This document shows, one piece after another, positions 5,650 to 62,414 of a stretch of 64,000 nucleotides of DNA. The stretch spans positions 74,133 through 138,132 of the forward strand of contig QZKH01000002.1 of assembly GCA_003598025.1 (NCBI GenBank), written 5' to 3'. The notes beneath the pieces were generated by a model. It saw only the letters and a list, made by a program, of their open reading frames with translations. It was not told the DNA's origin and did not search any database. How positions within the stretch are numbered: the first letter of the stretch is position 1; each line of letters starts with the position of its first letter. This stretch comes from Candidatus Omnitrophota bacterium. Its GTDB lineage: Bacteria; Omnitrophota; Gorgyraeia; Gygaellales; Profunditerraquicolaceae. Made by a program: the position numbers and the translations under genes.

Positions 5650-7167
5650 ATGGATATTATTAAAACACTGCAGGAGCGTATAAACACAGATGCCGATAAA
5701 CCGGCTATAATTTTTCGAGGCGGCCAGATATCTTTTAAGGAATTAATAACCAAGGTATATTCTTTAGCAGACAGCCTCGCAAAAATCGGCGTTAAGAATT
5801 CAGATAAAGTAGCTATATACCTGCCTAATTGCCCTGAATATTTCATAAGCTACCTGGCGGCATGGTGTATGGGGTTGGCGGTTGTCCCCTTAGACTATAT
5901 GCTTACCGAAGATGAATTGAATTCGTGTATTGGGCATTCAGAGGCAAAAGTGCTTATCGCCAGGCAGAAACCGGTGATATCACTAAATAATATAAAATCC
6001 AGAAACACAAAGCTTACCCATATTATTGTATCTAATCCTTCTGATAGCGGATTCCTTAAATTCGATGATATGTGTGTTACCTATAAGGCAGGCCCGAAAA
6101 AAGCTTATTCAGAAAAGGATTATGCGATTATTTTTTACACATCAGGCACTACCGGTAAACCCAAGGGTGTCCTGATAAATTACCGTCAATTAGGCGCTCC
6201 CGTACAATCAATGAGTTTTTTTACGGATTTAAACGACAAGGATATTGCCTTGTGCGCATTGCCCTTTTCTCACCTGGGAGGCCTGATTTATATCTTAAAC
6301 TGTGTTTCTTTTGGCATTACGGTTGTGCTTATGGAGCGGTTTAGCCCGTTAGAGTTCCTCAAAAATATAGAGGCCTTTAAGGTGAGCTGCTTCTGGATAG
6401 TGCCCTCGATGTATTATGCCTTCCTTCAGTTAAAAGAATTTGAAAATATCGATCTTTCTTCGCTCAGATGGATAGTTACTTTCGGGGCCTCAAATTCCCC
6501 CGAGGCATTAAGAAGGTTCCATAAATATTGCCCGAGTGCTTATATTTTAAACGGCTGGGGCCTGACCGAAACGAACGCCCCAACTACGGTTCTGCCTATG
6601 GGCTCAAATAAAATCGAGAGTGTAGGCCGTCCTGCCCCGTGGATCGAAGTGAAGATATTTTCCGCAGAGGGTTTGGATACGCCGGACAAAGAATTGCCAA
6701 GAGGCGAAATAGGCGAAATTGTTGTCAAAAGCTGGGTGGTTACTGACGGATATTATAAAGATGAGAACCTTACGCTTCAGACGATCCGTAACGGATGGTT
6801 CCATACCGGAGACCTGGGCAGGTTTGATGACGATGGGCACCTATACATTGTCGGCAGAAAAAAAGAAATGATAAAAGTCGGGGGAGAAATAGTTTTTGAG
6901 CCCGAGGTTGAATCAGTGATTTACAGCCATCCGGATGTAAGCGAAGCAGCTGTTATAGGAGTAAGCGATAAACTAAGAGGCGAAGTACCCAAGGCCTTCA
7001 TTGTCCTTAAAGAAGGCAGGCAGCTTTCAGAGGAGGACATAAGATTTTTCTTAAGACAGCATCTTGCGCATTTTAAAATCCCGCATTATTTCGAATATAA
7101 GGAAAGTCTCCCTAAGAACCGGACAGGCAAGATTGATAAAGAAGCGCTCAGGACAGGTTCTTATTGA
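5650..7167 (+). CDS. AMP-dependent synthetase/ligase (acyl-CoA synthetase family)
   Basis: AMP-binding motif YTSGTTGKPKGV, GWGLTET, hinge GDLGRFDDDGHLYIVGRKKEMIKVGGEIV, and the terminal PKNRTGKIDK lysine. Confidence 0.85.
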   Translation: MDIIKTLQERINTDADKPAIIFRGGQISFKELITKVYSLADSLAKIGVKNSDKVAIYLPNCPEYFISYLAAWCMGLAVVPLDYMLTEDELNSCIGHSEAKVLIARQKPVISLNNIKSRNTKLTHIIVSNPSDSGFLKFDDMCVTYKAGPKKAYSEKDYAIIFYTSGTTGKPKGVLINYRQLGAPVQSMSFFTDLNDKDIALCALPFSHLGGLIYILNCVSFGITVVLMERFSPLEFLKNIEAFKVSCFWIVPSMYYAFLQLKEFENIDLSSLRWIVTFGASNSPEALRRFHKYCPSAYILNGWGLTETNAPTTVLPMGSNKIESVGRPAPWIEVKIFSAEGLDTPDKELPRGEIGEIVVKSWVVTDGYYKDENLTLQTIRNGWFHTGDLGRFDDDGHLYIVGRKKEMIKVGGEIVFEPEVESVIYSHPDVSEAAVIGVSDKLRGEVPKAFIVLKEGRQLSEEDIRFFLRQHLAHFKIPHYFEYKESLPKNRTGKIDKEALRTGSY

Positions 7168-7173
7168 ATCCGG

Positions 7174-8199
7174 ATGAACATAAATAATTTCAACCTTGAA
7201 GAGTTGGAGAAAGTGTTGCGCGAATGTGGTCAGCCTGTTTTTCGCGCCCGGCAGATTTTTGCCTGGGTACATAAGAGGAAAGTCTTTGATTTCGGAAAAA
7301 TGTCGGATATGCCGTCAAGCTTAAGAGAAAAACTCAAAAATAAATATTCTATTCAGGATTTAAGCATAAGGAACATAACACGGTCAAGAGACGGAACGCA
7401 AAAATACCTTTTTTCTTTGAATGATGCCAATCTTATTGAAGCGGTGAATATCCCTGCGGCAGGCAGGGTTACGGGATGCGTTTCTACGCAAGCCGGCTGC
7501 AGGTTTGCTTGTAAATTTTGCGCAAGCGGAATTCAGGGATTTGTCAGGAACCTGGAATGTTCTGAGATAATTGAGCAGATTCTTGTCCTTGACAGAGATG
7601 CTTCCGGCGGCCTCACTAACCTCGTTTTTATGGGCACAGGCGAGCCGTTAGATAATTACGATAATGTTATCAAGGCGGCAAGGATAATAAATTCGCAATA
7701 CAGCATTAATCTTGGCGCAAGGAAGATAACCATTTCAACTTCCGGTGTCATTGCCGGCATAGAGCGTCTCAGTAACGAAGGGCTGCAAATCGAACTATCG
7801 GTTTCTTTGCATGCTGCAGATGATAGGACAAGGTCAAGCCTGATGCCCATAAACAAGGTTTATCCTCTAAGTGATCTGATTAAAGCCTGCAGAAAATATA
7901 CCGAGAAAACTAACCGGCAGATAACTTTCGAATACATCCTTATTAAGGGCATTAATTCTACATTGCAGGATGCGCTTAATTTAGTTAAAGTATTAAAAGG
8001 GTTATCCACAATCAAGGTTAATCTTATAGTATCTAATATCGTAGAAGAATCCGGACTTGAGCCGGCGGGCCTGAAAGATGCCGCTGCTTTTAAAGGGTGC
8101 CTTATTAAACACGGCATAAACGTGACGCTGCGTAAGCCGCGCGGACAGGATATTGATGCTGCCTGTGGGCAATTGAGGTTGAGATATGGGGAAGGATAG
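7174..8199 (+). CDS. rlmN: 23S rRNA (adenine2503-C2)-methyltransferase RlmN (radical SAM)
   Basis: CKFCASG radical-SAM CxxxCxxC motif, RlmN-type N-terminus (LRECGQPVFRARQIFAWV) and the conserved C-terminal Cys region. Confidence 0.85.
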   Translation: MNINNFNLEELEKVLRECGQPVFRARQIFAWVHKRKVFDFGKMSDMPSSLREKLKNKYSIQDLSIRNITRSRDGTQKYLFSLNDANLIEAVNIPAAGRVTGCVSTQAGCRFACKFCASGIQGFVRNLECSEIIEQILVLDRDASGGLTNLVFMGTGEPLDNYDNVIKAARIINSQYSINLGARKITISTSGVIAGIERLSNEGLQIELSVSLHAADDRTRSSLMPINKVYPLSDLIKACRKYTEKTNRQITFEYILIKGINSTLQDALNLVKVLKGLSTIKVNLIVSNIVEESGLEPAGLKDAAAFKGCLIKHGINVTLRKPRGQDIDAACGQLRLRYGEG

Positions 8200-8866
8200 T
8201 TCACTGTTCATAGTTCATAGTTCATGGATTAAGGCGGCAAATTTTATCTTGGCCTTATTTTTATTCTTTGGGATCATCGGGTGTCAGAAGAGGGATATAA
8301 AGAATATTGATTCTAAGGGCACGAATATCATTTGTTTCGGGGATAGCATAACCTTTGGTTACGGCGTTGACCCGGATAAAAGCTATCCTGCGGTTTTAGC
8401 CGGCATAACGCAGTGGCAGGTCATTAACGCAGGGGTAGATGGCGATACTTCAACCGATGGCTTAAACAGGATTAACAAAGATGTTTTAGAAAAAGACCCC
8501 TTACTTGTTGTTATTGAGTTCGGCGGTAATGATTTTCTCAAGAAAATACCAAAAACGCAAACCGCTGAAAACGTAAATAAAATGATTGATCATATACATG
8601 GACGCGGCTCAATGGTAGCGTTGTTAGATATAAGTACAGGCATTTTACTTAGCGATTACCATAAGCTTTTGAAAGACATAGCATCAGAAAGAGGCGCTAT
8701 TTTTATCCCAAAGATTTTAACAGGAATAATCACTAACCCCAGTATGAAGAGCGATTTCCTGCATCCTAATGAAAATGGTTACGCTGTTATCGCCCAACGT
8801 GTTTACCGCACAATTATCCCTTACCTGAATAGGAATTTTACTTTAAAGAGCATCGCCAGCAAATAA
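8186..8866 (+). CDS. SGNH/GDSL-family lipase or acylhydrolase (TesA-like), probable lipoprotein
   Basis: GDSITFGYG block I and GGNDF block. A lipobox-like IIGC follows a hydrophobic stretch. The N-terminal codons overlap a heptad repeat, so the true start may lie downstream of 8186. Confidence 0.7.
   Translation: MGKDSSLFIVHSSWIKAANFILALFLFFGIIGCQKRDIKNIDSKGTNIICFGDSITFGYGVDPDKSYPAVLAGITQWQVINAGVDGDTSTDGLNRINKDVLEKDPLLVVIEFGGNDFLKKIPKTQTAENVNKMIDHIHGRGSMVALLDISTGILLSDYHKLLKDIASERGAIFIPKILTGIITNPSMKSDFLHPNENGYAVIAQRVYRTIIPYLNRNFTLKSIASK
8199..8226. repeat. Heptad array (GTTCACT GTTCATA GTTCATA GTTCATG) at the rlmN / GDSL-lipase junction
   Basis: Four units overlapping the rlmN stop and the annotated 5' end of the lipase ORF. 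Confidence 0.75.
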
Positions 8867-11246: not shown

Positions 11247-11690
11247 ATGAAGCCAAAGACAATATATATTATTACTGCAGCTTTAGCAGCGGTTGTCTTT
11301 TCGCTGACTATGTCCATAAGTTTTAAGGATGATAATAAACAGCCTACATTGATGAAAAGGCAAGCCCGTGTCCATAGAACTGAATTTCCCGGTCCTTCAT
11401 TTACAAGTCAGCAGTCTTATAGCGGGTTTACCTCGGTGCCCGGTATTACCGTTGTAAAACCTCCGAAAAAGAAAGAGCCTGTTGAGTCAGTAATAAATAA
11501 TGAACCTTTATCGGATAAGCAAGATATCATTGATAAACAAAGCGTGGATGTTTCCCAAAAAGAGCCTTCCGGATCCCCGGACGAAAATAACGAAGAAGAT
11601 AATAGCACCTCAGGTATTACCGAGCTAAATAAGCGCCCCCCGGAAAAAGAAGCCCGCGAAATGAATCAACATGGGATTATGATGTGGTAA
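11247..11690 (+). CDS. Hypothetical membrane-anchored Pro/Glu/Ser-rich protein
   Basis: N-terminal TM/signal anchor (IYIITAALAAVVFSL), then a low-complexity region. Last gene of the pilin-like cluster. Confidence 0.4.
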   Translation: MKPKTIYIITAALAAVVFSLTMSISFKDDNKQPTLMKRQARVHRTEFPGPSFTSQQSYSGFTSVPGITVVKPPKKKEPVESVINNEPLSDKQDIIDKQSVDVSQKEPSGSPDENNEEDNSTSGITELNKRPPEKEAREMNQHGIMMW

Positions 11691-11742
11691 TTCTGCTACG
11701 CCCTAAGTAGGCTCAAGTAGGTAGGGCTTCGCAGCAATATAA

Positions 11743-11825
11743 TGCCGAGAGAGGGAGTTGAACCCTCACGAGGTTGCCCTCACCAGTTTTTGAGACTGGC
11801 GTGTATGCCATTCCACCACCTCGGC
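11743..11825 (-). tRNA. tRNA-Leu (anticodon CAA)
   Basis: Manual fold of the reverse complement: acceptor GCCGAGG/TCTCGGC, D-stem GTG/CAC, anticodon stem CCAGT/ACTGG with loop CTCAAAA (CAA), long variable arm TGAGGGCAACCTCGT, T-arm GAGGG-TTCAACT-CCCTC, discriminator A. 83 nt. CCA not encoded. Confidence 0.8.
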
Positions 11826-11947
11826 ATAAGTAGATTTGTTTTGAGGTAAGAATATTTACCAGGAAATGCTAGCTACGGCATTTGCTGATTTGCCTTACTT
11901 TTAGCTACAGCAAATCAATCCTGGGGCCTTTTAGCCCGAAGGATTTG

Positions 11948-12265
11948 GACCGTTTTACGCTCGTTTAGTGCCACTTCAAATTTTCCTTGTCGGAAAATAG
12001 TTATGTGGTGGCGCCGCACTCGCTGCCTCACTTGTCGCTCGGCTACGCTCGTTGCGGCATCCACCAATTTTTTCCTTACCGGAAAATTAAAATCCAAGGC
12101 ACTGAACTCGCTACGGTCCTTGTCGGACCGTTTTACGCTCGTTTAGTGCCACTTCAAATTTTCCTTGTCGGAAAATTAAAATCCAAGGCACTGAACTCAC
12201 TACGGTCCTTGTCGGACCGTTTTACGCTCGTTTAGTGCCACTTCAAATTTTCCTTGTCGGAAAAT
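11948..12265. repeat. Tandem duplication of an 89-bp unit: full copies at 12081-12169 and 12170-12258, a partial copy at 11948-11999, and a short partial copy at 12259-12265
   Basis: The two full units differ by one substitution (G/A at 12110 vs 12199). The partial copy GGACCGTTTTACGCTCGTTTAGTGCCACTTCAAATTTTCCTTGTCGGAAAAT is identical to the unit core. Confidence 0.85.
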
Positions 12266-12271
12266 TTGAAG

Positions 12272-12274
<3 letters not shown>
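12238..12274. other. Perfect 14-bp-stem hairpin (CCACTTCAAATTTT-9 nt-AAAATTTGAAGTGG) at the junction of the repeat and the tRNA-Ala 3' end
   Basis: Visible inverted repeat. The 3' arm overlaps the last 3 nt of tRNA-Ala on the opposite strand. Possible transcript-end or processing structure. Confidence 0.5.
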
Positions 12275-12344
<70 letters not shown>

Positions 12345-12508
12345 ATTATTATATTTTGCGTTCGTCCCGAGCTACCTTCTCTTGTCTTATGTACCGAGGA
12401 GCAGCCCCATATTTAAAATTTAAAGCTCAGTATACACTCCCAGTCCCGACGCTCATTTGCATTCGGTCGGGATGCCGACTTCACGTATTTTGTGAACGTC
12501 GGCACTGA

Positions 12509-12527
12509 GCTACAGCCCCATATTGGC
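12509..12527 (-). other. Duplicated 5' fragment of tRNA-Ala (GGGGCTGTAGCTCAG + TGCC) followed by hairpins; possible 5' leader of a tRNA-Ala precursor or a recombination remnant
   Basis: The first 15 nt are identical to the 5' end of the intact tRNA-Ala 165 bp away. Two stem-loops follow at about 12446-12508. A minus-strand sigma70-like promoter lies at 12545-12573. Confidence 0.5.
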
Positions 12528-12594
12528 TTAAATTTAGTGTATTAAATATAACATTCGGCTATAGCATTGTCAATACCTTCTGGCTGCCAAACAA

Positions 12595-12622
12595 GTTCAT
12601 GGTTGATAGTTCAAGGTTCATG
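12595..12622. repeat. Heptad array (GTTCATN)x4, minus-strand orientation of the TATGAAC family
   Basis: gttcatg gttgata gttcaag gttcatg. Lies 21 nt upstream, in minus orientation, of a minus-strand -35 (TTGACA, plus coordinates 12568-12573). Confidence 0.75.
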
Positions 12623-12656
12623 GACTATGTTAGCGCTTATAGCTATTAAGATTATC

Positions 12657-12691
12657 TATGAACTATGAACCATGAACAATGAACTATAAAC
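12657..12691. repeat. Heptad array (TATGAAC-like)x5 immediately upstream of the nfo -35 box
   Basis: tatgaac tatgaac catgaac aatgaac tataaac. Ends 10 nt before the -35 TTGACG (12702-12707). Confidence 0.8.
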
Positions 12692-12701
12692 CAAGTAGCC
12701 C

Positions 12702-12730
12702 TTGACGCTCCTTACCCCCTGGGGTATAAT
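12702..12730 (+). promoter_or_regulatory. sigma70-type promoter of nfo: -35 TTGACG (12702-12707), 17-nt spacer, -10 TATAAT (12725-12730); near-leaderless
   Basis: Consensus hexamers with a 17-nt spacer. The nfo ATG at 12741 is only 10 nt past the -10, so the mRNA is leaderless or has a very short leader. The TTG the ORF track uses as start is actually the -35 box. Confidence 0.7.
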
Positions 12731-12740
12731 GGGTGAAATT

Positions 12741-13583
12741 ATGATATTAGGGGTCCATGTTTCTGCAGCAGGCAATATTTATGATTCGCTTGAGCGTGCC
12801 TATGGGTTAGGCTGTAATACTATGCAGATATTTTCGCGCAATCCTCAAAGATGGCGCGATAATTTTTTAGGGGAGCACGATTTCGATGAATTTCGTAAGG
12901 CTAAGCAAAAATTTAAAATAAACCCCGTCTTTATCCATATACCTTATTTGATAAACCTGGCTTCTCCTGAGCCGGGGCTTTACCGGGCTTCAATCCGCGC
13001 ATATATTGAAGATATTGTTGAAGCAGATAAACTAGGCGCTGATTTTATCGTAACGCATATGGGCAGCCATAAGAAAACATCTGAAAGCCTCGGGATTAAA
13101 AGATTGACGGCTGCCCTGAATAAAATTGCCTTAGCAACAAAAGATTCCAAAGTCGGGATCCTGCTTGAAAATACATCCGGTTCCGGAAGCTGGCTGGGTT
13201 ATGATTTTACGCACCACAAGCGGGTTTTTGATAATTTGAAGGACAGGCAGCGTTTCGGCATATGCCTTGATACCGCCCATGCTTTTTCTGCGGGATATGA
13301 TATATCGAACAAGCCGGGGCTGGATGCGATGCTTGGGGAAATAGACAGGCTGGTTGGTTTAGGTTTGATCAGGTTGATACATCTGAATGACTCAGCTTCA
13401 AGACTTGGGCAGCACTTTGATAAGCACCAGCATATAGGGAAAGGCTATATCGGCATCCCGGGTATGAAAAATATCATTAACCATAAAGGGCTTAAAGATA
13501 AGCCCTTTATATTAGAAACCCCCAAAGAGTATCAATCTTCCGATATTGATAACTTGGAAACAGTGAGGAAACTGAGAAAATGA
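12741..13583 (+). CDS. nfo: Endonuclease IV (AP endonuclease family 2)
   Basis: MILGVHVSAAGN aligns with the E. coli Nfo N-terminus MKYIGAHVSAAGG. HLNDS metal-ligand motif. I moved the start to 12741 from the ORF-track 12702 on the basis of this alignment. Confidence 0.85.
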   Translation: MILGVHVSAAGNIYDSLERAYGLGCNTMQIFSRNPQRWRDNFLGEHDFDEFRKAKQKFKINPVFIHIPYLINLASPEPGLYRASIRAYIEDIVEADKLGADFIVTHMGSHKKTSESLGIKRLTAALNKIALATKDSKVGILLENTSGSGSWLGYDFTHHKRVFDNLKDRQRFGICLDTAHAFSAGYDISNKPGLDAMLGEIDRLVGLGLIRLIHLNDSASRLGQHFDKHQHIGKGYIGIPGMKNIINHKGLKDKPFILETPKEYQSSDIDNLETVRKLRK

Positions 13584-13988: not shown

Positions 13989-16406
13989 ATGGAATATGAT
14001 TTTAAGGAAATAGAGAAGAAGTGGCAGGGATATTGGGATAAGAGCGGTCTATACCGCGCTGAATATTCTCCGGGCAATAAGAAATATTATTTGCTTGAGA
14101 TGTTCCCTTATCCTTCGGGCAAGATACATATGGGCCATGTAAGGAATTATGCCATTGCCGACGTTGCCGCAAGGTTTAAGTTGATGCAGGGTTATAATGT
14201 CCTGCATCCGATGGGTTTTGACGCTTTTGGCCAGCCTGCAGAAAACGCTGCAATCAAGAACAAAACCAAGCCCGATGCCTGGACCCATAAATGCATAGAC
14301 TGGATGCGCGTTGAGCTTAAGAAGATGGGTTTTTCTTATGATTGGGCAAGGGAGGTATCTACCTGCGACAGCACTTATTATAAGTGGAACCAATGGATAT
14401 TCCTTAAAATGTTTGAGAAGGGCCTTGCTTACAAGAAAGCCTCGAATGTAAACTGGTGCCCGAACTGCGAAACCACACTTGCTAATGAAGAAGTGATAAG
14501 TGAAGAGTGCTGGAGATGCCATAGCAAAGTTGAGCAGCGTAAACTTGACCAGTGGTTTTTAAAGATCACCGGATATAAAGAACGGCTGCTTGAAGATCTG
14601 GGAAAGCTTAAAAATTGGCCGGAGCGCGTTATTGCAATGCAGTCTAACTGGATCGGCAGGAGCCAGGGCGTGGAGATTTATTTTAAAATTAAAGGCAATG
14701 ATGATATCACGATACCGGTTTTTACCACCCGTGTAGATACTATATTCGGCGCCAGCTACGTAGTTTTAGCACCGGAGCATCCTTTGGTCGAGGATATTAT
14801 AAAAGGCATAGCACATGAGCCAGAGATCAGGAAGTTTATCAATAAGGTAAAGAAAGAAAAAAAGAACATACTCTCCAAAGAAGATGTTAAAAAAGAGGGT
14901 ATTTTCAGCGGCCGTTATTGTATCAACCCGGTGAATAATGAAACTATCCCTGTTTGGATCGGTGATTATGTTTTAATGGAGTATGGCACAGGCGCGATTA
15001 TGGCAGTGCCGGCTCATGACCAGAGGGATTTTCTTTTTGCTAAAGAACATGGGTTACCTATGAGAATAGTTATAAACAGTCCACAGTCCACAGTCCACAG
15101 TCCACAGGAATTGACTGAAGCGTATGAGGGGGATGGTTTCCAGGTTAATTCTGGGCAATTTGATGGATTGGATAACCAAAAGGCAAAGTCCGAGATTGCA
15201 AAGTGGATGGAGGCAAAAGGGATAGGCAAAATCCAGACACACTGGAGGCTGCGCGATTGGCTTATATCAAGACAGCGATATTGGGGTACACCTATACCGG
15301 TTATATATTGTGAAAAATGCGGGATCGTGCCTGTCCCATATCATGACCTGCCTGTTGAATTGCCGGCTGATGCCCCTTTTACCGGTGAGGGTGGCAGCCC
15401 CTTGGCAAAAGTGAAAAAATTTGTAAATGTCAAATGCCCTAAATGCAATGGCTCTGCCAGGCGCGAAACAGATACCATGGCTACTTTTTTTGACTCGTCG
15501 TGGTATTTCCTGAGATTCTGTTCCCCTTCTTTTAATGAGGCGCCTTTTGATAAGCAGGAGGCTAGATATTGGATGCCAGTTGACCAGTATATCGGGGGAA
15601 TAGAGCACGCTATTTTACATTTACTCTATTCACGCTTTTTTACTAAATTTTTCAAAGACCTGGGGATGGTGGAATTTGACGAGCCGTTTACATGCCTGCT
15701 TACACAGGGGATGGTCCTTAAAGAAGGCGAAGTAATGTCAAAGTCAAAAGGTAATATAGTTGACCCAGATTCGATTATAAAGAAATACGGTGCAGATGCC
15801 CTGCGGCTTTTTATACTTTTTGCCGCGCCTCCGGAAACTGAACTGGAGTGGGATGACAGGGGGATTGAGGGAGCATCCAAGTTCTTAAACAGGGTATGGC
15901 GCCTGCAGGATAACCTAAGGGATGGCCCGGCAGATAAATCAGGAGGGCTGGCCACCGCAAAAATACTGCATAAAACAGTTAAGAAAGTAACTGATGATAT
16001 AAATCAGTTTAAATTTAATACCGCGATTGCCAGTTTAATGGAGCTGACAAATGTTTTATATCAGTCCGGGGCAGATAAAGAGGATTATTCTACGTTAGTT
16101 GTGTTGCTGGCCCCGATAGCCCCGCATTTTGCAGAGCAAATTTGGGAGAATTTAGGGAACAAAGAATCTGTATTTAAGGCAAAATGGCCGCAGTATAACC
16201 CGGATTATCTTTTTGATTCTGTTGTTGATATAGTAGTCCAGGTAAATGGTAAGCTGCGCTCTAAGCTCGCAGTCCCGTTTGATGTTAGAGAAGAAGAGTT
16301 AAAAGAATTAGTCTTGCGTGATCAGAAGGTACAACCCTGGATTAGCGGTAAGAATATCAGAAGTTTTATATTCGTGCCCAACAAACTTGTCAACATCGTA
16401 GTCTGA
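13989..16406 (+). CDS. leuS: Leucyl-tRNA synthetase
   Basis: HIGH motif [13 protein letters not shown] and KMSKS motif (VMSKSKGN), 805 aa. Contains an in-frame heptanucleotide array (CAGTCCA x4) encoding [10 protein letters not shown]. Confidence 0.95.
15077..15107. repeat. Heptanucleotide tandem repeat (CAGTCCA)x4 + CAG inside the leuS coding sequence
   Basis: cagtcca cagtcca cagtcca cagtcca cag. The unit is not a multiple of 3 but the reading frame stays open. Confidence 0.85.
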
Positions 16407-16788: not shown

Positions 16789-16839
16789 ATAAATAATTAT
16801 ACCTAAAATATCTGGCGAATGCAAAGAAAAGGATATTTG

Positions 16840-16867
16840 GTTCATAGTTCATAGATCATGGTTCATA
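16840..16867. repeat. Heptad array (GTTCATA)x4 upstream (minus orientation) of the REC gene promoter
   Basis: gttcata gttcata gatcatg gttcata. Confidence 0.8.
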
Positions 16868-16914
16868 GATAATTTATGCTGACGCTTACATTTATCCATG
16901 CTAAGACAACCAAC

Positions 16915-16935
16915 CATGAACCATGCTCTATGAAC
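16915..16935. repeat. Heptad array (CATGAAC-like)x3 upstream of comEA, inverted partner of 16840-16867
   Basis: catgaac catgctc tatgaac. Confidence 0.7.
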
Positions 16936-16989
16936 CAATCCCTGTTAGAAATAACATCTGTATGCGTCTTATATCAGGAGGGCAAAAAT

Positions 16990-18703: not shown

Positions 18704-18731
18704 CCGTAACTATGAACTATGGACCATGAAC
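18704..18731. repeat. Heptad array (TATGAAC-like)x4 upstream of the BamD-like gene promoter
   Basis: ccgtaac tatgaac tatggac catgaac. Ends 24 nt before TTGACA (18756-18761). Confidence 0.75.
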
Positions 18732-18792
18732 AAACCTACTTTGCCTACTTAGCAATTGACAAACATTCTGCTCTATGTTACTTTAATTTAAT

Positions 18793-31558: not shown

Positions 31559-32709
31559 TTATGCTGAATATAATATTACTGGGAATCACAAGTTTTCTTA
31601 CTGATGTATCAAGCGAGATGGTCTATCCTTTGCTGCCTGTTTACCTGGTAACTGTTCTCGGTGCAGGTCCGGCAGTACTGGGATTAATCGAGGGCGTTGC
31701 AGAGAGCTTGGCAAGCATAACGAAGGTCTTCTCTGGATATTTTTCGGATAAATTGAAGTCCCGCAAGCCATTCACTATATTAGGATATTTTGCTTCCGCA
31801 TTAGGAAAAGTTTTTTTATTTTTGTCAATAGGCTGGGGATTTGTTTTAGTCGGACGTCTGCTTGACAGGTTTGGCAAAGGGGTACGTACTGCTCCGCGGG
31901 ATGCCTTGATTGCCGATAGCACATCGAAAGGTAAGAGGGGCTCTGCTTTTGGCCTGCACCGGGCCATGGATACATGCGGGGCAGCCGTAGGAGTCGTACT
32001 GGCTTATTTCTTGGTTTCTCATTATACGGGCAATTTTAAGCGGGTTTTCTTTTATTCTCTTATTCCTGCTTTTATCGGCGTGTTGGTGCTTTTTTTGGTA
32101 AAAGAGAAGAAAGAAAAGAGAGATGAGCAGCTCGGCAGGAAAAAAATATCTTTCAGCTGGAAAGGCCTGGATAAAAGGCTTAGGCTTTTCTTGATCTTCA
32201 GTTTTATTTTTACTCTCGGCAATTCTTCAAACCAGTTTTTGCTGCTTAAGGCCAAAGACATGGGCAGCCCTGTCACCAGCGTGATTATTTTATACCTTGT
32301 TTTTAATGTTATTCAGGCTGTGGTGATATATCCTGCCTCATGGTTATCTGATAAGATCGGCAAGAAAAAACTTCTTGTAGCCGGATATCTCTTCTACGGT
32401 TTAGTTTACCTTGGGTTTGCTTTAAACAATTCATTAGGCCATTTATGGATTTTGTTTGCCTTGTATGGGATTTATATGGGCCTGACTGAAGGAGTGGAAA
32501 AGGCGCTTATTGCGGATATTTCACCTGCTGGGCTTAGGGCAACTACGATTGGGCTGCATGCTACAATTATCGGGATAGGTTTATTGCCTGCATCTGTGTT
32601 AGCCGGTGTACTTTGGAAATTATTCGGCGCACAGGCTCCTTTTTATTTCGGATCGTTTATGGGAATATTGGCAAGCTGCGGATTCTTTTTTGTGCTGAAA
32701 GGCCTTTAG
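31555..32709 (+). CDS. Major facilitator superfamily transporter
   Basis: 12 predicted TM segments and an MFS loop motif (GRLLDRFGKGVRTAPRDALIAD). 384 aa. Confidence 0.7.
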   Translation: MIMLNIILLGITSFLTDVSSEMVYPLLPVYLVTVLGAGPAVLGLIEGVAESLASITKVFSGYFSDKLKSRKPFTILGYFASALGKVFLFLSIGWGFVLVGRLLDRFGKGVRTAPRDALIADSTSKGKRGSAFGLHRAMDTCGAAVGVVLAYFLVSHYTGNFKRVFFYSLIPAFIGVLVLFLVKEKKEKRDEQLGRKKISFSWKGLDKRLRLFLIFSFIFTLGNSSNQFLLLKAKDMGSPVTSVIILYLVFNVIQAVVIYPASWLSDKIGKKKLLVAGYLFYGLVYLGFALNNSLGHLWILFALYGIYMGLTEGVEKALIADISPAGLRATTIGLHATIIGIGLLPASVLAGVLWKLFGAQAPFYFGSFMGILASCGFFFVLKGL

Positions 32710-33587
32710 TTATTTTCCTTCGGTTCAAGATGCACAATCACGTCTGTAACCCCTTCGATATTTAATTTGATAACGCGTTCTATGTCGTAGCAGACTTTAT
32801 GAGCTTCATCCATATGCATATCCGGGTCTACCTGTACGTGCAGGTCTATATAGATATCATCTGACCTTCCCCGTGTACGTATCTTATGACAGGACCTGAC
32901 TCCTTTTATACGTAAAACCAGATCGACTATTTTTTTAGAGTCTATTATTGCTGCTGTATCACAGAGCACCCTGGAAGATTCCTGGATGATCCTGTACCCA
33001 GAGTAGGCTATAAATAAAGAAATCACCATTGTAACGATAGGATCGATTATAGGGAAGCCTAATTTTATAGCGGCTAAAGCTATAATAACAGATATAGAGG
33101 TGAATATATCTGTCTGCGTATGCATCGAGTCAGAAATGAGGATATCACTCTTCAATTTCAGGCCCTGTTTTTTCTCGTAAATCATGACAGCTAGATTTAT
33201 GCTTAGAGTTGTCAGCATGACAATGAGAGCGCCAAGCCCGATATCAGGGATTACAGGGTTATTTATACGCAATAATCCTACCCTAAACAGATTGAATGCG
33301 ACTATAAACAGGAAAGCGGATATCGCTAACGAGAATAAAGTTTCGTATTTCCTATGCCCGTAAGGATGGTCTAAATCTTTAGGTTTCGAAGCAAGATGAA
33401 TTCCGATAAGCGCAATTATATTAGATGCCCCGTCTGACAGAGAATGAAAGCCGTCAGCGCTTATGCTGGAACATTTGCTTAAAGCGCCATAAACAATCTT
33501 GGCTAAAGCAACTCCCCAGTTAAAGGCAAGGATTATAATCAGTATCTTCTTGATCTCTGCGGTTCTTCTTGATAAATCCTGCTCCAT
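32706..33587 (-). CDS. Cation diffusion facilitator (CDF) family metal efflux transporter
   Basis: HSLSDGASNIIALIGIHLA...HPYGHRKYETL is the CDF signature. Six TMs plus a C-terminal cytoplasmic domain. Confidence 0.85.
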   Translation of the reverse strand: MEQDLSRRTAEIKKILIIILAFNWGVALAKIVYGALSKCSSISADGFHSLSDGASNIIALIGIHLASKPKDLDHPYGHRKYETLFSLAISAFLFIVAFNLFRVGLLRINNPVIPDIGLGALIVMLTTLSINLAVMIYEKKQGLKLKSDILISDSMHTQTDIFTSISVIIALAAIKLGFPIIDPIVTMVISLFIAYSGYRIIQESSRVLCDTAAIIDSKKIVDLVLRIKGVRSCHKIRTRGRSDDIYIDLHVQVDPDMHMDEAHKVCYDIERVIKLNIEGVTDVIVHLEPKENN

Positions 33588-62303: not shown

Positions 62304-62345
62304 CATGAACCACGAACTATGAACTATGAACTATGAACTATGAAC
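62304..62345. repeat. Heptad array (CATGAAC CACGAAC TATGAACx4), six units, 17 nt upstream of a TTGACT-16-TATAAT promoter
   Basis: Longest array in the window. -35 at 62362-62367, -10 at 62384-62389. Confidence 0.85.
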
Positions 62346-62414
62346 TAATATGCTATACCCTTTGACTATTATCAGCCCGCTGTTATAATGGGACAGGATA
62401 GGCGGAGGTGTAAT

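Follow-up and report, generated by a model that had tools for sequence, protein, structure and literature searches.

Families of heptanucleotide repeats were recognised in bacteria as early as 1990, and to our knowledge none of them has an established function or an identified binding partner. Here we describe such a family in a 64,000-nucleotide (nt) stretch of a Candidatus Omnitrophota genome (contig QZKH01000002.1, positions 74,133 to 138,132), which is called the window below and whose own numbering is used throughout. The element in question is a pair of mirror-image arrays of the 7-nt unit YATGAAC, located between the divergent promoters of a tRNA-Ala gene and of nfo, the gene for endonuclease IV.

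As summarised in two later papers (PMC4679880, PMC4692102), Mrazek (2007) found heptanucleotides to be the commonest long simple-sequence repeats in prokaryotes and proposed that they arise by polymerase slippage. Described families include the STRR repeats of Calothrix and Nostoc, the GGGAATC repeats of Xanthomonas, which also occur as inverted pairs, and the GGGGAYT repeats of Nostoc (PMC4692102). TAACTGA repeats of Beggiatoaceae, Cyanobacteria and Bacteroidetes are mostly in forward orientation and lie just 5′ of start codons (PMC4679880), and deletion of Nostoc heptamers near promoters or start codons changes reporter output (bioRxiv 10.1101/2022.06.06.494920). Tandem heptads 5′ of promoters serve as protein docking sites in the omega operator/parS system of plasmid pSM19035 (PMC9499535, PMC2441792), and the TTTTGAT heptads of the Vibrio cholerae ctxAB promoter recruit ToxT, ToxR and H-NS, with copy number mattering (bioRxiv 10.1101/2021.05.14.444153).

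The arrays of the window consist of at least three head-to-tail 7-nt units and are dispersed and mainly intergenic, and thus belong to the heptanucleotide class of long simple-sequence repeats. The two arrays beside nfo are members of this dispersed YATGAAC family and are not specific to the locus. The family represents a known yet unexplained class in a new phylum, Omnitrophota, with a distinctive promoter-facing layout. Tentatively, we read the arrays as products of slippage that may have been kept as docking sites for a putative DNA-binding factor.

Heptad arrays and the promoters they face

Arrays were detected with Tandem Repeats Finder (TRF) and a register scan, taking at least three units with no more than one mismatch to ATGAAC as the criterion, and promoters were scored as sigma-70-like by the number of matches out of 12 over the -35 and -10 hexamers. 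The region between tRNA-Ala and nfo is organised as follows.

12545-12573, minus strand: tRNA-Ala promoter TTGACA-17-TATATT, 11/12 matches with a TG-extended -10; predicted start at about 12538
12595-12622, minus strand: left array, four units (GTTCATG GTTGATA GTTCAAG GTTCATG), reading CATGAAC CTTGAAC TATCAAC CATGAAC on the minus strand toward the tRNA-Ala promoter, with the -35 about 20 nt further on
12623-12656, no strand: 34-nt spacer between the left and right arrays
12657-12691, plus strand: right array, five units (TATGAAC TATGAAC CATGAAC AATGAAC TATAAAC), TRF period 7 with 5.1 copies, with the nfo -35 about 10 nt further on
12702-12730, plus strand: nfo promoter TTGACG-17-TATAAT, 11/12 matches
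12741-13583, plus strand: nfo, endonuclease IV, the first gene of the series nfo / receiver-domain gene / leuS

The original prediction, made from the letters of the window alone, had described a GTTCATN array of four units, a 34-bp spacer and an array of five units at this locus. All three are present, and the family turned out to be genome-wide. In the window there are seven YATGAAC arrays, six of them intergenic, with a TRF period of 7 and 3.4-6.1 copies; six arrays of at least three units were observed, against none in 100 order-2 Markov simulations of the window. Besides the two at nfo, the following were found.

8198-8225, minus strand: four units in a GDSL lipoprotein gene, codons 5-13, where the sense strand reads GTTCAT
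16839-16866, minus strand: four units facing TTTGCA-18-TATAAT; the ATG of a receiver-domain gene (about 16788) lies about 7 nt past the -10
16916-16936, plus strand: three degenerate units 5′ of comEA-like/comEC, with a weak promoter match only; mirror partner of 16839-16866
18712-18732, plus strand: three units, 23 nt before TTGACA-17-TACTTT; the ATG of a TPR/YfiO-like gene lies 8 nt past the -10
62305-62346, plus strand: six units, 15 nt before TTGACT-16-TATAAT of a flavodiiron-type gene (true start 62415, with GGAGG)
about 33700, plus strand: degenerate array in a divergent promoter region

The arrays at 16839-16936 form a second mirror-image pair between divergent promoters. The arms of the mirror pairs are 19-24 nt long and 88-95% complementary, and no significant similarity was found by local alignment between the 34-nt spacer and the spacer of the second pair (P about 0.15-0.2). 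The genes that carry arrays have no common theme: they encode a DNA repair enzyme, a tRNA, a receiver domain, competence proteins, an outer-membrane assembly TPR protein and a flavodiiron protein.

Placement and polarity were biased. Five of the six intergenic arrays have a sigma-70-like promoter downstream in the direction in which ATGAAC is read, with the -35 starting 9, 13, 15, 20 or 23 nt later. A random position and orientation within the 5.3 kb of intergenic DNA of the window meets this promoter criterion 5% of the time, giving P of about 2e-6, a value that overstates specificity, since a compact genome whose genes are leaderless has little free DNA that is not 5′ of a promoter. Orientation taken alone agreed in 5/5 cases (P about 0.03).

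The units themselves look constrained over the ATGAAC core and free at the seventh base. Among 29 units, positions 1-6 of the core deviate 0-2 times each, and the seventh base is T in 16 units, C in 10 and A in 3. Of the 22 deviations, 13 are at this seventh base (P = 1.4e-6), a count biased by the fact that the arrays were found by their match to the core; with arrays defined by periodicity alone, which removes this bias, 9 of 14 deviations still do (P = 2.5e-5). If slippage products decayed neutrally, deviations should be spread evenly over the seven positions; neutral slippage does not explain the constraint on the core.

Both promoters of the locus could be compared with those of relatives. 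The comparison was built on the 80 best nfo loci of species-representative genomes, nearly all of them Candidatus Omnitrophota, with 54-66% identity; labels such as L025 denote individual comparison loci or contigs. A protein identical to the LeuRS of the window is attributed by NCBI to a metagenome-assembled genome of Candidatus Omnitrophota; exact-protein look-ups with nfo and LeuRS led to no other assembly, and none of the metagenome loci belonged to the organism of the window. The promoter of tRNA-Ala in relatives reads ttgacaat...gaatgttatattta, followed 10-31 nt later by GGGGCTGT, and the minus-strand promoter of the window is homologous to that of L025, L027, L029, L030, L033, L056, L063, L065, L073 and L075. 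In L025, L027, L029, L033, L056 and L065 tRNA-Ala is divergent from nfo, and the two -35 boxes stand back to back, 7 nt apart, as ttgtcaaCTATAACcttgacg, with no heptads. In the window, 128 bp separate the same two boxes, made up of both arrays and the spacer. The tRNA-Ala and nfo promoters are ancestral as judged from this comparison, and since the extra 128 bp correspond to the arrays and spacer that the relatives lack, the arrays are a lineage-specific addition between pre-existing promoters.

The product of nfo matches AP_endonuc_2 (Pfam, E 2.7e-43) and its N-terminus, MILGVHVS, aligns with the start of the family. Its ATG, at 12741, is 10 nt past the -10. Taking transcription to start about 7 nt past the -10, the predicted 5′ untranslated region is about 3-4 nt long, without room for a Shine-Dalgarno sequence. 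The nfo promoter is kept across Omnitrophota loci as cTTGACGc...gTATAAT. A survey of 74 loci for promoters of at least 10/12 within 70 nt of the ATG gave 48 relatives with a recognisable promoter, and in 44 of these the -10 ends 5-10 nt before the ATG, with 10 as the commonest gap. Both promoters claimed by the original prediction were thus found where it had put them, as was the nfo ATG 10 nt past the -10, and its suggestion that nfo is near-leaderless gains support from the relatives, in which the short gap is conserved.

In three other genes of the window a good -10 stands just 7-8 nt 5′ of the ATG, and a Shine-Dalgarno sequence is lacking: the receiver-domain gene (about 16788, minus strand), the TPR/YfiO-like gene (18793) and the open reading frame (ORF) 32706-33587 (33587, minus strand). 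Leaderless or near-leaderless expression seems common in this organism, and the comparison adds evidence that it is common in Omnitrophota. Two further promoter arrangements were observed. At about 42590, 50870 and 58130 of the window, three strong promoters with the common extended -35 TTCTTGACA precede short ORFs or regulator-like genes and carry no heptad array. Most Omnitrophota loci with tRNA-Leu on the minus and tRNA-Ala on the plus strand, in that order (L002, L009, L017, L036, L052, L201 and others; not the window), have between the two genes a symmetric element, TTGACG-N6-ATTTTA-N5-TAAAAT-N6-GGTCAA, which resembles two interleaved divergent promoters, each -35 lying beyond the -10 of the other.

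Heptad arrays in relatives and other genomes

The closest relative has a LeuRS (P0002) 76% identical to that of the window; two of its contigs, L201 and L202, share synteny with the window, and L149 was also assigned to it. It carries the YATGAAC family mostly in other contexts, namely between cistrons, in a tRNA leader and in a 5′ coding region. The array in the 5′ coding region of the GDSL gene is retained in L201 as GTTCATG GTTCATA GTTCATA GTTCGTG: by a hand count on the alignment, about 31 of 34 nt (about 91%) match the window, against about 45% in the adjacent signal-peptide DNA. The tRNA-Ala leader of L201 contains an inverted pair (GTTCGTA in four units, 16 nt, ACGAACY in four units) between a TTGACG-17-TAAAAT promoter and the tRNA. 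In L149, two inverted pairs (four GTTCATG-type units, then five of ATGAACT) fill intercistronic gaps of an oxidoreductase operon and end 3-4 nt before the ATG, with no Shine-Dalgarno sequence; one single array also lies between cistrons in this relative. As in the relative a GTTCAT arm is followed by an ATGAAC arm and then by the gene, unit and polarity persist while the intergenic sites turn over and the context changes. The TPR/YfiO-like promoter is conserved in L201 without an array.

More distant loci have inverted pairs of other units at similar places: in L052 the tRNA-Ala leader contains a pair whose unit is related (ACTCGTA/TACGAGT), and in L050 a pair of AAGCTGT lies in the signal-peptide coding region of the GDSL gene. 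Heptad arrays inside lipoprotein signal-peptide coding regions were seen in GDSL lipase orthologs of the window (8186-8290), L201 (7986-8090) and L050 (2938-3070) and in LptE-like genes 3′ of a BamD-like TPR gene in L001, L034, L055 and L065, and the unit differs from genome to genome.

At 2562-2642 and 3136-3200 of L149, (ATGAACT)3 reads as ATG AAC TAT GAA CTA TGA. An array of this unit therefore contains mini-ORFs of five codons that overlap one another in each of the three frames, start and stop meeting in AUGA. The mini-ORF beginning in the penultimate unit runs to a TGA that overlaps the ATG of the downstream gene, an arrangement that suggests termination-reinitiation coupling.

Period 7 is enriched in the Omnitrophota loci, with 22 arrays of at least four units against 0-5 for each of periods 5, 6 and 8-13. 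The enrichment was considered as support for a phylum-wide regulon and rejected as such, because it comes mostly from arrays at one site inside leuS. In the window this gene (13989-16406) has a perfect in-frame ACAGTCC array of 4.6 copies at 15076-15107, which falls within the LeuRS editing domain in the variable loop that follows 'LPMRIVI'. A period-7 array occupies this codon position in about 18 related Omnitrophota loci as well; their units differ, and many have the pattern xTCCAxx. Among 120 LeuRS homologs the loop shows a repeat at a 7-residue offset in 13 and at an 8-residue offset in 6, and none at offsets 3-6 or 10-11. The gene leuS is essential, yet the slippage-prone array that it retains has a unit length not divisible by three.

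Three tandem units of ATGAACN occur in more than 120 metagenome contigs with a G + C content of 31-67%. High-GC contigs have convergent inverted pairs (ATGAACG in four units ... GTTCATC in four units), and on Bacteroidetes-like contigs arrays abut TAnnTTTG promoters. Arrays of ATGAACN in other phyla were found in L165 (about 6366-6465), L102, L170, L191, L081, L095, L108, L127, L132, L156, L174 and L179; that of L165 is a divergent pair between rsmI-like and serS-like genes, and its last unit seems to supply the start codon of the rsmI-like gene. Other metagenome contigs have arrays of different heptads side by side.

The tRNA-Ala leader and trailer

On the tRNA side of the arrays, transcription from the minus-strand promoter would pass through a long leader before it reaches the tRNA. 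The features on this side, all on the minus strand, are as follows.

12345-12538, minus strand: predicted tRNA-Ala leader, 194 nt, with fragment copies and hairpins
12505-12521, minus strand: copy of the tRNA-Ala 5′ end, 17 nt, 100% identical (repeat comparison)
12474-12503 and 12438-12472, minus strand: two leader hairpins (predicted fold)
12394-12410, minus strand: weaker second copy of the tRNA 5′ end, preceding the intact gene
12370-12407, minus strand: third leader hairpin (predicted fold)
12271-12344, minus strand: intact tRNA-Ala(GGC) (ARAGORN)
11742-11826, minus strand: tRNA-Leu(CAA)

The leader consists of tRNA nucleotides 1-15, a 62-nt insert with two hairpins, CUGGGAG as the continuation of the D-loop, and then divergent sequence. 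Its minimum free energy is -59.2 kcal/mol, compared with -45.3 +/- 4.3 for shuffled sequences (z -3.2), lower than in 200 of 200 shuffles. The distance from promoter to fragment in the window matches that from promoter to tRNA in L025, L029 and L056; therefore, the 17-nt copy at 12505-12521 would mark the position of a former tRNA-Ala gene. The leader is best read as a decayed tRNA-Ala duplicate rather than a separate small RNA. The original prediction had offered both a structured tRNA leader and a separate small RNA: the former gains support from folding beyond that of the shuffles, and nothing points to the latter. The tRNA fragment it reported exists, shifted slightly from the 12509-12527 it gave, and its two hairpins and intact tRNA-Ala are there. 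A search of 11400-13000 against Rfam, with E up to 1, gave no hits above noise other than the two tRNAs.

Copies of the tRNA-Ala 5′ end (GGGGCUGU...) also precede tRNA-Ala in L008, L024, L028 and L038. In L024 and L028 they are tandem units that fold back on a GCCCC strand in a form like an acceptor-stem minihelix.

Between tRNA-Leu and tRNA-Ala, at 11947-12266, the window has an 89-nt unit in 3.6 copies with the hairpin module GGCACU-AAGCGAGCGUA-[stem]-CGACAAG-[stem]-AGCGAGCG-AGUGCC. A second hairpin of this region, with a GACAA loop, pairs with the 3′ end of the tRNA (CCAC...GUGG). At least 14 other Omnitrophota loci have the GGCACU...AGUGCC module 3′ of tRNA-Ala. The consensus fold of 18 copies shows compensatory changes at 13 of 15 pairs, with tandem G.A pairs inside GCGAGC/GCGAGC. 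The module had no match in the Rfam search above, and is a candidate for a new structured RNA or for a tRNA-trailer processing element.

Possible roles of the arrays and comparison with known systems

The reading we favour, with a probability of about 0.42, is that heptad arrays born by slippage have been kept as docking sites for a putative sequence-specific DNA-binding factor. In the ancestral arrangement the tRNA-Ala promoter and the near-leaderless nfo promoter stood back to back; replication slippage would have created the arrays and changed their length, so that one array now stands before each promoter and reads 5′-ATGAAC-3′ toward the promoter it faces. Retention would be due to a factor that docks cooperatively on the tandem ATGAAC cores. 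Bound at about -46 to -90 of each promoter, it could modulate the two divergent promoters or insulate them from each other, and could do the same at the other array-bearing promoters of the window. The constraint on the core, the conserved GDSL array, the persistence of the unit in two diverged genomes and the polarity together suggest that something sequence-specific recognises the arrays. Five of the seven arrays of the window lie 5′ of conserved promoters and are not expected to be transcribed, which makes a DNA-binding factor the most economical reading at this locus.

Several observations weigh against this reading. The placement statistic is inflated by the compactness of the genome, as noted above, and the gaps between array and -35 (9, 13, 15, 20 and 23 nt) vary with no helical phasing. 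Arrays are absent from the nfo, comEA and TPR promoters of L201 and so are dispensable for those promoters, and the intercistronic, tRNA-leader and coding placements in the relative do not fit a simple upstream-activator model. No general link between ATGAACN arrays and sigma-70 promoters was seen in the metagenome contigs: among 51 low-GC cases 3 showed one, and the window itself supplied two of these. A Pfam scan of the ORFs adjoining arrays, and of those ORFs only, found no DNA-binding family and hence no candidate binding protein, and the two response regulators nearby consist of a receiver domain only.

A bolder version, that the YATGAAC arrays are operators of a lineage-specific global Omnitrophota regulator which would form polymers along tandem heptads and direct its action at the promoter or gene in front of it, we consider unlikely. 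Drift of the specificity of such a regulator between lineages would explain why different heptads occupy the same places (the tRNA-Ala region, the GDSL signal peptide and the leuS loop).

As the main alternative, the arrays might be neutral or selfish simple-sequence DNA, made by polymerase slippage with template-switched inverted copies and surviving only in tolerant DNA (5′ of promoters, in intercistronic gaps, and in stretches that encode signal peptides or protein loops); at this locus their only effect would be to push the two promoters apart. We regard this as somewhat unlikely. It accords with the abundance of heptanucleotides among the long simple-sequence repeats of prokaryotes and the slippage proposed for them, as these are summarised in PMC4679880 and PMC4692102, with the enrichment of period 7 in Omnitrophota loci (22 arrays of at least four units against 0-5), with the variety of tolerant places occupied, coding DNA included, with the turnover of intergenic sites between the window and L201, and with the recurrence of inverted pairs in any context, even within a coding region (L050). 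It does not account well for a conserved ATGAAC core beside a variable seventh base, for a GDSL array better kept than its flanks across 24% LeuRS divergence, for a unit identical in two diverged genomes despite changing sites, or for the consistent polarity toward the downstream promoter or gene. Action at the RNA level is quite improbable. Here the hairpins of inverted pairs would be processing sites and (AUGAACY)n would be a tract for Shine-Dalgarno-independent ribosome loading or reinitiation, and the copies of the window that lie 5′ of promoters would be inert or transcribed from unrecognised upstream starts. The intercistronic pairs of L149 speak for it: they end 3-4 nt before an ATG that lacks a Shine-Dalgarno sequence, and their sense strand folds better than the antisense (-38.3 versus -23.5 and -18.7 versus -12.5 kcal/mol). 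So do the pairs within the tRNA-Ala leaders of L201 and L052, the (ATGAACT)3 mini-ORF of L149 that stops at a TGA overlapping the gene's ATG, and the role in translation proposed for the TAACTGA repeats of Beggiatoa (PMC4679880). Against it, the two arrays of the locus both lie 5′ of conserved promoters, no partner is available for the single arrays at 18712 and 62305 to pair with, the folding advantage of the sense strand reverses in L201, L052 and the second pair of the window, and mismatches in the arms are not compensated in a single register.

Two other possibilities have a very low probability. A cruciform or other supercoil-sensitive DNA structure could couple the divergent promoters through negative supercoiling, as the arms of 19-24 nt with 88-95% complementarity and the position of both mirror pairs of the window exactly between divergent promoters would allow; against it, spacers of 34-46 nt disfavour extrusion, the arms are imperfect, and other promoters have single arrays without a partner. 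Slightly less probable still are contingency repeats of the phase or rheostat type, in which copy number would alter expression of nfo or tRNA-Ala. They have a precedent in ctxAB, where heptad copy number correlates with V. cholerae promoter activity (bioRxiv 10.1101/2021.05.14.444153), but the imperfect units here lower slippage, the arrays lie upstream of the -35 and leave promoter spacing unchanged, and the genes are housekeeping genes.

Several more specific candidates were tried and rejected. A phase-variation repeat needs perfect repeats between the -35 and -10 or in the reading frame, and the units of the locus are imperfect and upstream of the -35. A mobile module of array plus promoter is contradicted by the unrelated sequences between array and -35 at five promoters and by mirror-pair spacers that are not significantly alike, and selection for an RNA hairpin by a sense-over-antisense folding advantage that is inconsistent across loci. 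The spacing does not fit a LexA/Cheo box (GAAC-N4-GTTC) or GTTC-N7-GTTC. TorR boxes (CTGTTCATAT), which the units resemble, were dismissed because OmpR-family regulators use a period of 10-11 bp and not 7. We reasoned that an array cannot encode its own promoter, as a -10 and a -35 cannot both fit the 7-nt register. Finally, the arrays are not UP elements: they have no A/T tracts, their gap to the -35 is 9-23 nt and they reach to about -90, compared with a consensus of A/T tracts fixed at -38 to -59.

Docking of a putative factor on the arrays remains our preferred reading. Should there be such a factor, it would establish a regulon for a phylum without genetics, and if it were the global regulator considered above, a previously undescribed regulon with a co-evolving heptad code in an uncultivated phylum. 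If there is no such factor, the locus is a natural experiment on how slippage-born DNA reshapes promoter architecture. The polarity toward defined promoters, the mirror pairs at two divergent regions, the constrained 6-base core and the array-free promoters of relatives offer clean handles.

Compared with the known systems, the YATGAAC arrays are closest in organisation to STRR-type families: they share tandem 7-nt units in three to six copies, a single prevailing unit in each genome, many arrays scattered mainly through intergenic DNA, an orientation bias toward the downstream gene and occasional inverted pairs. They differ in the unit and in their host phylum, Omnitrophota, and in that the arrays of the window are 5′ of the -35 and not at the ribosome-binding site. 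The mirror pairs of the window are divergent (GTTCAT...ATGAAC) and lie between divergent promoters, whereas the Xanthomonas example is convergent. Unlike in the TAACTGA repeats of Beggiatoa, a complete promoter separates array and ATG in the window, and placement close to a start codon was found only in the relative's L149. REPIN/BIME elements are likewise lineage-specific intergenic inverted doublets that persist in a lineage, but REP elements are not built of tandem heptads, the two mirror pairs of the window have unrelated spacers, and no RAYT-type transposase was seen, although no search aimed at one was made.

Among the systems with known binders, ctxAB has tandem heptads directly 5′ of a core promoter as here; those heptads are AT-rich and recruit regulators, and they are a different unit at a single locus with known binders, whereas the present family is genome-wide. 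The omega system of pSM19035 has contiguous 7-bp units, both direct and inverted, at promoters, and the cooperative binding to tandem heptads that occurs there offers a model of how such arrays could function. It differs in having WATCACW in 7-10 copies on a plasmid and a known protein, while YATGAAC is chromosomal and in the relative also lies in transcribed and coding DNA; and the arrays of the window, when compared with operators of the pSM19035 type, are located upstream of the -35 and do not overlap it.

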